From NCBI RefSeq assembly GCF_033153115.1, contig NW_026889750.1, positions 9,300,001-9,364,000 of the forward strand: a stretch of 64,000 nt of DNA, given 5' to 3'. Both the position numbers and the translations under genes were made by a program. Under the pieces are notes generated by a model. The model was not told the DNA's origin. It worked only from the letters and a program-made list of their open reading frames with translations, and did no database searches. This stretch comes from Saccostrea echinata. Taxonomy: Eukaryota. This document shows positions 18,378-35,953 of the stretch, one piece after another (the first letter of the stretch is position 1; each line of letters begins with the position of its first letter).

Positions 18378-21300
18378 TCACAGAAGATGTCTGTAGTTTG
18401 GATTGACTTCTAGTTGGCACTCAGGACACGGGTAATCTCGAGTTAAGAACGGTTCATACCTAAAACAAAGAAGATATATGACAAAACAATATCAAATTAT
18501 GCATATTTTTTGCACTACTAAAGCCTTTTTTCAATGTAATTTGATATTCAAAACGTCATTTGATTGGATTGACCAGCATGAATATATTTCCCAAACTATC
18601 AAGAATTAAGGTACACATGTATACTAACTACTTTCAAAATACGTATATTACCAGAAGTTTATAGCTAGATTCCTTCCTGCAGTTATATTAGGAAAGGACT
18701 GAACTTCATGCCACCAAAAGGAGGGCAAGTACAGAACATCACCTTCCTCTATGGTGCAGTTCATGGGGTAGGTTTCTCCAAACAATGGAAATCTCTGCCA
18801 AATGAAATAACGGAACATTTTAAAAATACATGTACACAAGGTTGTAAGACAAAGATTAAAAATGAAACGGCCATTTTTTATCTTTATTTTTTTTATTATT
18901 ATTATTATTTATTTTTTTATTTATTATTTATTTCCTTTTTTTCATATATACATATTTTTATTTTTTTTTTTATATTTATTTATTTATCTATCTATCTATT
19001 TGCAAATTAGTTAATTTAACAGGAAGGAAAATCTCATTTGCCCTCCAAAAGGGTGGCACGCAGATTGAGGTTTGGCGCAGTGGTTAGAGCGTAGTAAGGA
19101 GTTGATCCGTACGTCGTGGGTTCGAATTACCACTGTGGGACGTGGAGACCGGTCCTTCGGATGAGACCGTATAAACCGAGGTCCTCCCGTGTCGCAGTAG
19201 GTGCTGGCACGAAAAAGATCCCTCACTGCTCAATGGCCCTAAGTGCCGAGTATAGGTCAAAATTTGCAGCTCTCCACCGGCAAGTGGTGGCGTCTCCATA
19301 CGAGTGAAAAATTTCGAGAGGGACGTTAAACAATAAAGAAACAAACAAACAGATTGAGTTTTAATATTGAAAAAAAAAGGATTTCAAATAAAAGATAGTA
19401 TGATCATAAAGCAAAAGTCTTTAATATTCGGATTTTTTCCATTTAAATTGCTTTTATTACACAATATTCATTATTTCTAGGAATACATTTTACTCTTTTC
19501 CAGAAGTAAACAAAAAACATCAATCAATATTGTTCACCTGATAAATAAAAACATATGTACAATTTGATTTCACAAACATTGTCCAGGTAAAAATCTTTGA
19601 GAAGCAACATAGAATTTGTGCATGAAGTTTTTCAAACAATAATGTACATGTATTTAATAAATTCAATGTTCATTAAAGGATGGAATTCCAAATAGTTTTA
19701 TGGGGAAAATGCAACCTGCTGGTGTTTGAGCAATAACTCAATATGAAATGGCGTATTGTTTCATCCAGACATCATATACTTACTGTATAATTGGGGTTTG
19801 TGATGTCCAAGGGAGAAAATACCTGAACCGTAGTGTCTTTCAAATATAGTCTTTGAAATGACTTCGAAGTAAAATTATACGACATGCTAGCTTCTTGGAT
19901 GTGACCTTCATACAATTGATGATTGTTGTGAGGATCGAATAAAATAACCTGCTTTCTGCCACTTATCTAGAAAATGTACAAAATAGAATATTATAATTAA
20001 TTATTATAGTTGTTATGTTCTCTTGTTTTCCATTAAAATAGACCACAAAAAAAAAAAAAAAAAAAGAAATTCATGTACATGTACCTTTCACCATTCATGA
20101 GTATTGTGTGAATTGAATTTATGAAGACAACATTTTTGGAAATTTAAATTTACACATTATGAATTTAACGTCATTCACTCTCTTTCTAACTAACGTAGCG
20201 CAAGAAAAAAATCTTTTCAAGAAATAATACATCTTATTCGTTGCAATATCAAGAAGATAAGTCTGGCAGCTATTTGACGTCCATACTTAAACTTGGACTA
20301 TACAGAAATACTTAGTTTTACCTGACAAAGAAAATTATCATATGCATCAAAATGCAATTTTCCAAGAGTTCTTCCATCGCTGAGCCAAATATTCAGCATC
20401 TCCTTTTTTAAGAGGCCCTTGAAGAGCATTTCTTCTCGAATGTCTTTTTCCAATTCTGGCAGATACTGAGGAATTGAGGCGTATTGTAAATACGCAGACA
20501 TATTATCAATGGACCCATTAGAGATTCCATCCAAAATGTCCATAAAAACAGAAAGATTTCTTTTTTCAATAGCCGGATTTACCATTACTAGATCAGGTGA
20601 GGGGATCTGATCGGCACAAGATCGAGAAAGCTTGAAATTTTCACGATTTTCCCAAATATTTATAGGTTCGATTCTTTCAAATTCATTATGTGGTGTTAGC
20701 TGGAACGTAACTTCGTGTTCGCCAAATTTTTCTCGTAAGTACTTGTTTGTCCATTTCGTAAATGCTGGCCATTCTTCTAAAACTCTTTTGAATATTACAG
20801 GTCTGGACTTTTTCAAATATTTGCGAAAAAAATCATCACGTGTTGGAAGGGGGATTCTCTCGCATTCGGGTAGTCTTGGGATATCATGAACATGCAAATT
20901 ACGATCAGAAAAACAAACTTTATCACTTTCAGAACACTTTTGCAAAAATACATCTTTTGACTGGACATAAGAAACATTTTTAACGTAAAATTTCGATCGC
21001 AGAATTTCTTTACGATGAAGGCCTTGTTTAGATAAACCACCAGTGGCATTAAGAAACGCATTACAACCCTGATTTATAAAGTCTGTCAGCTTTTCAATGT
21101 GAAATATGCCTTTATAAACAAAAGGAACGATACTTCGAGATTGCGGAATAGAATATAATTCTTGTTTATCTTTTTGTATTTTCTCGAACAACACCACACT
21201 CCCAATGTGAACACATGTAGTTTCATCATATTGTCTAGAAACTTTAGTCCCATCGGGCAACGTATCATTTATATCAATAAATCCAATCAGGATTCCTTGA

Positions 21301-21536
21301 TCATTGTTTATCAGCAGGTTTCGCAGATACTGAAAAAGTTTATACTCATTAGATAACTCAGCAACACTGCATCCACCAGTCACATAAGCAACAATGCATG
21401 AAGACTTCGCTCTTCTTAACACAAAATCTAGCGAGAAGCATCCTGATAGTGCATACACACAAGAAATGAGATTCAAAATGCACAATAGTATAAATGTGAC
21501 CTTAACGAATATCCATTTCTCAAACTGACGTCTCAT
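18378..21536 (-). CDS. JmjC (cupin-8, JMJD7/TYW5/FIH-like) oxygenase with signal peptide, copy C, 540 aa
   Basis: Exons 21536-20322, 19966-19784, 18794-18652 and 18459-18378 splice in frame. Fe ligands LHFD and WWHEV, 2OG lysine in SGRKQ; C-terminus YPCPECQLEVNPNYRHLL*. Confidence 0.9.
19070..19349 (+). mobile_element. tRNA-derived SINE, full length
   Basis: A box TGGCGCAGTGG, B box GGTTCGAAT, (AAAC)n tail; TSD CAGATTGAG at 19061-69 and 19350-58. Confidence 0.9.
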
Positions 21537-34400: not shown

Positions 34401-35953
34401 TGCCTCTGGAATGTGTCCCTCATACATCTGATGATTGTTGTGGGGATCAAACAAAATAACCTGCTTTTTACCACTTATCTGAAACAAGAAGTAAAATTTT
34501 ATCTAAATACTAGCACAGATAATAATATATATAGATAATAAATATTTCGCATCAATTGCACAGTTTTGCATTTTAAAAATGTTTACAGACAGACAGTTGG
34601 ACTATTTATGGACTCTTAGCCTTTGCATTAGATCTCCTGGTCTTTGACCAGTAGAATTAAACATATGTACTAAAATGTGTCATTAGATTAACTGGACATG
34701 TTGAATGTGAACATCCACATACAATTTTGTTACTGTACCTGGCAAAGGAGATTGTCAAATTGATCAAAGTGCAGCTTTCCCAAAGTTCTTCCATCACTAA
34801 GCCATATATTTAAGTGTTTTCTATTTAGAAGTCCCTGGAATAGTAAATCGTCTCTCAAGTCCTCCTCCAGTTCTGGCAGATGATCAGGAATGGAGGAATA
34901 CTCTAGGTAGGCTGACATATCATTGATAGTCCCATTGGATACTCCTTCAACTATATCCATGAAACTTGAGAAATTCATGTTCTTAGTGGCTGGTCGAACC
35001 ACTACCAAGTCAGGAAAAGGCAACTGATCTTCCACTGATTTGGGGATCTCAAAATTTTCATGATTTTCCCACATATATCTTGGTTCAACTCCTTCATATT
35101 CACCCAAGGGTGTTAACTTGATATGGACATCATTTTTCCCAAATTTTTCTCGAAAATATCTATTTGACCACTTTGTAAAAGCTGGCCAGTCTCTTAAGGC
35201 ATTTTTGAATATAACTGGCTTTGATATTTTTACATAATTATGAAAAAAGTCCTCTCTGGAAGGGAAGTCAATTCTCTCACATTCTGGAATTCTAGGTATA
35301 TTGTTGTGAAAATGAAAATTATGATTGTCTGATGAACAGGATTGGTCTTCAACTTTACAATTCTGATTTACTGGTTGAAACACATCTTTTGATTGCACAT
35401 TTGAGATGTTTTGAACATAAAATCTTGTTCTGTGGATTTCATTCTTATGCAGCCCCTCTATAGAAGGACCTCCAGTTGGTGACATGTAGGTATTACATCC
35501 ATCATTGACAAAGTCTATTAGTGTTGCAAGTCCATTTACACCATTGAAAATAAGTGGGACCATACTCCTCTGTGATGGAGATGGTAGCAAACACGTTCGA
35601 TCCTTAGGGATCTTCTTAAATAAGACAATTTTTCCTGCCTCTACACCTTCACCATAAAATGATTTCCCGTCGGGCCACTTACTATTTATGTCAATATACC
35701 CAACTAAAATTCCTAAATCTTTATGCATCGTTAATTTTTTAAGTTCTGAAAAATGGGAATTGTCATAAATTTGATTATCTACTAGGCAACTATTCGTCAC
35801 GAGCGCAACAATACAAGTTGAATGTGCTCTTATGAGCACAAATTCTGGGGAAAGACAACTTGACAGTGCGTGTACACAACATAAAATAATGCAAAAGATG
35901 TTTGCCAGGAAATCGATCTTCAATTTTTTAAATCTAACTCTTTCTTTCCTCAT
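31426..35953 (-). CDS. JmjC oxygenase with signal peptide, copy A, 540 aa
   Basis: Exons 35953-34739, 34478-34296, 33945-33803 and 31507-31426 in frame. LHFDQFDN, SGKKQ, WWHEV; ends YPCPECQLDVNPKYRHLL*. Confidence 0.92.
31924..33058. mobile_element. Second Helentron/HINE-type element with ~8 diverged ~140-bp tandem units
   Basis: TTTTTATGCCCCCG..hairpin, (CTGT)n, repeated AAAACTTTAACCTTG..TTTCACATGTGTATTCCTTGTGACAAG..TTGACCTTG units; ends CACAAACACATCTTGTT. Absent from the paralogous intron (~23335). Confidence 0.85.

Follow-up and report, generated by a model that had tools for sequence, protein, structure and literature searches.

A 64,000-nt window of the Saccostrea echinata genome (contig NW_026889750.1; all coordinates below are positions in this window) was analyzed with respect to a cluster of genes for JmjC oxygenases. 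Six-frame translation and self-comparison resolved three JmjC genes, copies A, B and C, in tandem on the minus strand (18378–35953), together with a decayed remnant, D, which was missing from the copies listed in an earlier note on this DNA. The array borders given there were exact, as the ATG of copy A lies at 35953 and the stop codon of copy C ends at 18378. The three tandem copies are thus real, yet the arrangement is ordinary by itself and the less interesting part of the result: the gene belongs to an ancient, eukaryote-wide family, apparently an undescribed clade of JmjC oxygenases that, judging by their sequences, would enter the secretory pathway and carry a fused PDI-like domain, and that has been locally expanded in oysters. 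The features of the array were as follows.

34739–35953, minus strand: exon 1 of copy A, with the leader (aa 1–29), the thioredoxin-like domain (about aa 31–160), a linker and the first JmjC half including H395/D397 (translation, spliced contigs, identity to P0001)
35867–35953, minus strand: predicted signal peptide of copy A, with seven K/R in the first 14 aa, an 11-aa hydropathy of 2.76 and VHA before the mature part (hydropathy, family statistics)
34296–34478, minus strand: exon 2 of copy A, with K410 (splice joints in 4/4 runs)
33803–33945, minus strand: exon 3 of copy A, with H495 (splice joints in 4/4 runs)
31426–31507, minus strand: exon 4 of copy A, with the CxxC tail and YRHLL end; 3' untranslated region (UTR) to about 31131 (tblastn; joint 31505–33801 in 4/4 runs)
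29862–31068, minus strand: exon 1 of copy B, with a 2-nt frameshift near 30985, right after the hydrophobic leader (sequence comparison; no listed RNA contig over the site)
28890–29072, minus strand: exon 2 of copy B (sequence comparison, RNA pieces)
28176–28318, minus strand: exon 3 of copy B (sequence comparison; joint with exon 4 seen in run X4)
27905–27986, minus strand: exon 4 of copy B (sequence comparison, RNA)
23408–24157, minus strand: remnant D, decayed end of A exon 3 and start of A intron 3 (self-BLAST, 65% to 33141–33911; tblastn, 24112–24050)
22003–22135, minus strand: remnant D, decayed copy of A exon 4 (sequence comparison)
20322–21536, minus strand: exon 1 of copy C, with intact leader, thioredoxin-like domain and HxD (sequence comparison, RNA pieces)
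19784–19966, minus strand: exon 2 of copy C (sequence comparison)
18652–18794, minus strand: exon 3 of copy C (sequence comparison)
18378–18459, minus strand: exon 4 of copy C (tblastn/sequence comparison)

Copies A (35953–31426), B (31068–27905) and C (21536–18378) share a four-exon plan with identical intron phases and exon sizes of 1215 (1207 in copy B), 183, 143 and 82 nt. Open frames of 540 aa were found in A and C, while B, as assembled, is 2 nt short at the leader end/VxA site and meets a stop after 53 codons. The joined copy A protein is identical to P0001 (540 aa), labelled by NCBI as an uncharacterised S. echinata protein; its last exon is separated from exon 3 by a 2.3-kb intron. 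This intron holds a 144-bp tandem repeat (32011–33012, 4.6 copies), likely a later insertion, since it is absent from the duplicated remnant D. Collinear blocks in the self-comparison indicated that a unit formed by the 3' end of A plus B was copied, yielding remnant D plus C. A genome search with exon 1 of copy A, in which 12 candidates were scored, recovered only the three array copies and one weak match to another family.

Transcription was evaluated on contigs of four RNA runs, representing at most three samples from two studies, with the library type guessed by the tool; contig depth was unable to rank the expression of the three copies. All three introns of copy A were joined at canonical sites in contigs from the four runs. 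The earlier note had named a transcript start downstream of the hydrophobic segment as a point against targeting; instead, spliced contigs from three runs cover the leader of A and extend to 35995, 35964 and 35968, that is, 11–42 nt upstream of its ATG, and these 42 nt contain an in-frame stop and no ATG. An end of copy A at exon 3 by read-through was ruled out, as exon 4 is spliced on. In run X1, 19 nt of the A 5' UTR were absent just upstream of the ATG (35958–35977), which likely represents an allele. Copies B and C were represented by short matching contigs, one of which joins the last intron of B (run X4), and no cover of the frameshift site of B was found among the listed RNA contigs. 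Run X2 contributed no coding pieces. An apparent chimeric B-C transcript (joint 18794–28890) was read as ambiguous mapping over 20–24 nt at the near-identical start of exon 3.

The deduced proteins matched the Pfam family Cupin_8 (211.8 bits vs. a curated cut-off of 27.4), and a full-length model was obtained (predicted local distance difference test, pLDDT, 91; predicted template modelling score, pTM, 0.87). Its fold ranked closest to JMJD7 (Z 28.6), followed by JMJD5 (25.8), TYW5 (23.7) and FIH (21.9). The HxD..K..H core reported earlier as intact was indeed so in A, B and C (H395, D397, K410 and H495). In comparison with fly JMJD7, the metal triad, the 2-oxoglutarate (2OG) Lys, one Tyr, the Asn and the Trp were kept and near-invariant in about 228 rows of the family (H395, D397 and N401 in 228/228, H495 in 126/126, Y349 in 228/229 and W384 in 228/228). 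K410 was kept in 130 of 163 rows, most misses being rows that run into an intron, and the strand 1 Asn, N382, was invariant (96/96). In JMJD7, the C5 carboxylate of 2OG is bound by four residues, Lys, Tyr, Thr and Tyr (PMC9001643). Two of these ligands in the fly protein, Thr172 and Tyr183, correspond to G392 (226/229) and L403 (207/229) in the family.

The substrate pocket departed from those of the solved relatives. E238, the Arg-binding residue of JMJD5 (PMC5862942), aligned with K279, present in 206 of 229 rows, while E287, E351, Y352 and T390 were near-invariant and specific to the family. Because no solved relative has the same pocket, the family likely targets neither Lys, as in JMJD7, nor Arg, as in JMJD5; the pocket as predicted does not reveal which residue is targeted. 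K279 was not adopted as proof of an acidic substrate: six of the seven rows with Gln at 351 also lacked K279, and this paired loss fits an internal K279-E351 ion pair. Disulfides are predicted, with C225-C479 as one candidate pair.

The N-terminal region was folded alone with a pLDDT of 88, and no Pfam match was found for it. A fold search on the model placed it nearest to Wind/ERp29 (Z 10.0, root-mean-square deviation 2.7, 109 residues aligned) and ERp46 (Z 10.0), followed by PDI (9.6), TUSC3 and ERdj5 (both 9.1), with almost all of the top rows being thioredoxin folds. The best Foldseek match was yeast Pdi1 (E 4e-4), and Atlas features agreed with the assignment, although at a score of only 0.85. 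The earlier guess of a thioredoxin-like fold around the IVLF..F.G..L.DF.N segment was therefore borne out on the predicted model. A CxxC motif occurred anywhere in the domain in only 3 of 143 rows and was absent from copy A, and a redox-inactive thioredoxin/PDI-like fold is thus predicted. ERp29 and Wind likewise have a thioredoxin fold without CxxC, which they use to bind clients. In the modelled comparisons the domain is closest to the PDI/ERp29 domains of the endoplasmic reticulum (ER); since cytosolic thioredoxins score within about 2 Z units of the best match, an ER origin is suggested only. A profile of the domain built on animal sequences matched six of eight named non-animal rows (missing two), six of 16 further distant rows (missing 10) and none of seven controls, and the matches in non-animal rows point to an old domain fusion.

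Copies A and C start with the leaders FLANIFCIILCCVHA and VTFILLCILNLISCVYA, respectively. Both show the basic tip, hydrophobic stretch and V-x-A that the earlier note had described for the intact copies; B has a leader with such a tip too, its frame being lost at the VxA. All three leaders have an 11-residue hydropathy of 2.6–2.8, that of A reaches 2.16 over a 19-residue window, and no second hydrophobic stretch of membrane length was found in copy A by hydropathy. Leaders were scored across the family by a hydropathy heuristic (≥ 2.0 within the first 45 residues) in rows starting with Met and having room for the N-domain. The threshold was reached in 123 of 151 N-complete relatives vs. 20 of 1113 internal windows and none of 29 JMJD7 proteins. 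Moreover, Ala precedes the mature domain (position -1) in 15/15 oyster-type rows, small-x-Ala being conserved, and cleavage of the signal peptide after A29 is predicted. With a leader that is both conserved and transcribed, the reading of secretory targeting stood up.

The CPEC..YRHLL tail noted earlier was seen in all three copies. The CxxC tail is present in 113 rows; the animal-type LL(G) terminates 47 of them, while six of the other 66 C-termini end in xxEL (0.8% expected, p 2e-5). Overall, xxEL/KDEL-like ends were found in 9 of 245 rows (RDEL twice, KEEL, PDEL, ADEL) vs. none of the 40 rows that a JMJD7 search gave. A proposal that RHLL is a variant of KDEL had no support and was not adopted. 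The N-glycosylation sequons listed previously (NIS, NFS, NGT, NCT and NKT in A; NMS, NFT and NYT in C) were confirmed. Those of copy A were dropped as evidence by themselves, their count (5) not being above shuffled sequences (mean 4.2); in 41 full-length, mutually related animal rows there were 222 sequons vs. a mean of 154 and a maximum of 190 in 200 shuffles. Glycosylation of the A, B and C proteins is predicted.

Copy A shared 61–62% identity with B and C, with saturated synonymous sites, while B and C were 84% identical (synonymous divergence, dS, 0.27; ratio of nonsynonymous to synonymous divergence, dN/dS, 0.30). In 83 other rows, 131 positions were conserved at the 90% level; A departed from these 3 times, B 21 and C 25. 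The changes in B and C cluster at 276–288, 303–320, 351–353, 398 and 449–455, many of them near the active site; the metal ligands are unchanged and C121 is lost in both. Proteins of the B/C type were also found in Saccostrea cucullata and in oyster-like contigs. From these comparisons, A is likely the conservative orthologue, while B and C likely stem from an oyster-type duplicate with a drifted pocket, whose changes would fit an altered preference for another substrate. Purifying selection between B and C implies that the frameshift in B is recent or an assembly error; it may mark a pseudogene, an allele or such an error.

A word search retrieved 310 relatives at E ≤ 1e-10 (best 120 listed) and a profile search 342 at E ≤ 1e-30 (best 150 listed). 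The labels among the matches listed covered bivalves, gastropods, a chiton, an annelid, echinoderms, a hemichordate and amphioxus, and the named ones among 30 proteins looked up added Nematostella, Plectus, Trichinella, Monosiga, two Salpingoeca, Aphanomyces, Nonionella, a cercozoan and Synura. The thioredoxin-fused family therefore includes molluscs, annelids, deuterostome invertebrates, cnidarians, nematodes, choanoflagellates and SAR (stramenopile, alveolate and rhizarian) protists. No vertebrate or insect/arthropod labels were seen among the matches listed; as these are only part of the total, loss in those groups is suggested only. A description of the family was not found in the open literature, subscription journals not being covered.

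A tree of the JmjC core (71 rows, 309 columns, LG+G4; support by the Shimodaira-Hasegawa-like approximate likelihood ratio test, SH-aLRT, only; one JMJD5 included, FIH, TYW5 and JMJD8 left out) recovered a 49-row clade of the thioredoxin-fused family (96) apart from JMJD7 (100) and from a family with a GHxxxhG motif (100); owing to long branches, its deep order is uncertain. The Saccostrea genome holds separate genes for JMJD7 (on another contig), JMJD5 and the GHxxxhG family. The JMJD5 orthologue (G000, locus L005, C54) lacks introns and forms one frame of about 417 aa. Four further loci of the same genome (L023 on C12, L016 and L020/L011 on C2, and L004 on C9) encode JmjC proteins with a signal peptide and a GHxxxhG-type start. 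EF-hands are present in the L023 product (P0270), which terminates in KDEL, and its relatives P0273 and P0274 terminate in HDEL, so that the GHxxxhG family, called secreted in 2010, looks ER-retained. A third oyster-like subtype of the thioredoxin-fused family (P0011, P0013, P0015 and P0016; K279 replaced by Y or Q, E351 by Q) is absent from the window.

Taken together, the array probably encodes lumenal JmjC oxygenases: the signal peptide would take the protein into the ER, the redox-inactive PDI-like domain would likely hold a client protein of the secretory pathway, and the iron/2OG site would likely hydroxylate a side chain of that client. Of the lumenal or secreted hydroxylase put forward earlier, targeting, the thioredoxin-like domain and the 2OG/Fe site held, while catalysis, a protein substrate and residence in the ER or Golgi are what we infer. 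A wider proposal, which we offer tentatively, is that such a PDI-like/JmjC chain is an ER hydroxylase as old as the animal-SAR split that modifies secreted proteins in invertebrates and protists, was lost in vertebrates and insects, and had its B/C pocket re-tuned in oysters for their own secreted proteins.

Several observations weigh against lumenal protein hydroxylation. The leader threshold was missed by 28 of the 151 relatives (by eye, mostly truncated or extended gene calls, some just under the cut), and the p-value of the leader comparison overstates the case because the rows of relatives are non-independent. The animal members, including A, B and C, end in YRHLL and lack a KDEL-type signal, which leaves retention unexplained and means that they may be secreted. 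Replacement of two of the four ligands of the 2OG C5 carboxylate implies altered cofactor binding, and 2OG oxygenases also modify small molecules, lipids and nucleic acids (PMC9001643). A secretory-pathway 2OG oxygenase acting on a glycan, a glycosylphosphatidylinositol or other lipid moiety or a small molecule, or one released and working outside the cell, would accommodate the animal tails and the pocket with K279 in place of the Arg-binding Glu of JMJD5; TYW5 is a tRNA-modifying enzyme of the same clade (Iyer 2010, section 8, PMC2938197), and conservation from protists to animals singles out no one animal protein substrate. We nevertheless regard this alternative as rather unlikely, given that the nearest folds are peptide hydroxylases, that the extra domain resembles protein-binding PDI domains and that nine relatives have ER-retrieval-like tails; on general grounds, moreover, Fe(II) and 2OG are unlikely to be steadily available outside cells.

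Retention without KDEL would also be explained if the leader were uncleaved and anchored the enzyme in the ER/Golgi membrane, its catalytic part facing the lumen; such an anchor is reported for JMJD8, which keeps its signal peptide (PMC5684140). The strongly basic N-tip and the 19-residue hydropathy of the A leader fit such an anchor, but the small-x-Ala of all 15 oyster-type rows and the soluble-type KDEL-like tails of relatives make it improbable. The tail cysteines raised a further candidate, in which the CxxC of C525 (115/118) and C528 (114/119) would be redox-active or bind metal with H427, found together with C525 in 106 rows, and C121, coupling hydroxylation to disulfides or providing thiol-mediated ER retention. 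KDM4 offers a precedent, with a His/Cys cluster having two cysteines after strand 8 (Iyer 2010, Table 1, PMC2938197); as C121 is lost in B and C, and an ordinary structural disulfide would be the more economical interpretation for a lumenal protein, we consider this very improbable. Finally, many members are labelled 'JMJD7-like' in databases and JMJD7 is the best PDB match, as expected for ordinary cytosolic JMJD7 paralogues with a mis-predicted N-terminal extension. This explanation is largely refuted by the canonical JMJD7 gene on another contig, the separate clades and the conserved, transcribed leader, and translation from the next Met (76) would truncate the thioredoxin domain.

In addition to the JmjC genes, other elements were identified in the window. 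A Claudin/PMP22-like gene with a weak Pfam Claudin_2 match (E 9e-4) lies directly upstream of copy A (36900–38412, minus strand). Downstream of the array are VWA-domain exons (9321–9843, minus strand) and a C-type lectin exon (15581–15856, minus strand; 74% copy at 2090–2440), which by their domains would belong to secreted or surface genes. Myosin motor domain exons were found at 55073–63868 (plus strand). A tandem array of a 166-bp unit (25554–26502, 4.3 copies, 92%), with a further copy near 58089–58515, showed heavy RNA contig cover; we take this unit to resemble the oyster 166-bp satellite.

To our knowledge, no JmjC enzyme is among the protein hydroxylases recognised so far in the secretory pathway (collagen prolyl and lysyl hydroxylases, AspH), and in JMJD8, the only lumenal JmjC protein studied, the metal site is altered. 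If the favoured explanation is true, a strongly conserved JmjC family that combines an intact site with a PDI-like domain of its own would represent a new route to modified secreted proteins, and the oyster A vs. B/C pair a natural experiment in changed specificity. A functional analogy is offered by collagen prolyl 4-hydroxylase, a 2OG oxygenase of the ER whose partner, the PDI subunit, has a PDI-type fold; in the oyster proteins, however, a single chain contains both this fold and the catalytic domain, which is JmjC rather than of the prolyl 4-hydroxylase type. Hydroxylated residues occur in secreted proteins of marine invertebrates; mussel plaque proteins, for example, contain C-4 hydroxyarginine (PMC11603075). 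The literature covered, as far as accessible, names no enzyme for such residues. The thioredoxin-fused and GHxxxhG families are two candidate sets for such hydroxylations, the former lacking the Arg-binding Glu of JMJD5. An Arg hydroxylase for mussel foot proteins was thus not favoured, E238 being absent; the accessible part of PMC7971044 names no JmjC gene.

Among characterized enzymes, JMJD7, the (3S)-lysyl hydroxylase of DRG1/2 (PDB 5NFN, 4QU2, 7YXG), was the best match in both sequence (E 1e-32) and fold (root-mean-square deviation 2.8, 279 aligned residues, 28% identity), sharing the metal triad, 2OG Lys, Tyr, Asn, Trp and the strand 1 Asn, described as a mark of JMJD7 (Iyer 2010, Table 1, PMC2938197). 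The oyster proteins add the leader, the thioredoxin-like domain, a 25-residue insert and the CxxC tail, and the helix 2 cysteine of the inter-subunit disulfide of JMJD7 aligns with K242, a variable position. Orthology to JMJD7 was ruled out by the separate clades and the canonical gene elsewhere. JMJD5, an arginyl C-3 hydroxylase (PMC5862942), shares the fold, the core ligands and W310 (W384), and differs at E238 (K279), S318 (G392) and Y243 (G284). The HP motif of FIH (strands 4–5) was not found in A, B or C, and FIH ranked below JMJD7 and JMJD5 in the matches and stood outside the tree. A signal peptide, N-glycosylation and lumenal location are shown for JMJD8 (PMC5684140) and predicted for the oyster family; JMJD8 has HxH and belongs to the demethylase clade (Iyer 2010, Table 1), whereas the oyster family has HxD in 228/228 rows, matching JMJD7.

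Secretory JmjC enzymes as a concept are already in print. Besides JMJD8, Iyer 2010 (PMC2938197) predicted an animal-only, secreted JMJD5-like family with the GHxxxhG motif, lost in nematodes, as well as extracellular versions of FIH and MINA in Monosiga and stramenopiles. The rarity of secretory JmjC proteins implied by the earlier note is therefore overstated, the more so with four further GHxxxhG-type loci in the genome. The thioredoxin-fused architecture and clade were not found in the accessible text of these sources, the family being absent from Table 1 of Iyer 2010, whose supplement may hide members. Both families comprise JmjC-only oxygenases that fall in the yW-hydroxylase/FIH clade and carry a signal peptide and conserved cysteines, with no vertebrate members seen and a predicted role in hydroxylating secretory proteins. 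Membership in the 2010 family was nonetheless ruled out by the missing GHxxxhG motif (1/151 rows of the thioredoxin-fused family vs. 5/5 controls), the separate clade and the distribution: the thioredoxin-fused family, with a thioredoxin-like N-domain where the GHxxxhG family has an EF-hand/KDEL tail, extends to nematodes, choanoflagellates and SAR protists, groups that the family of Iyer 2010 is said to lack.

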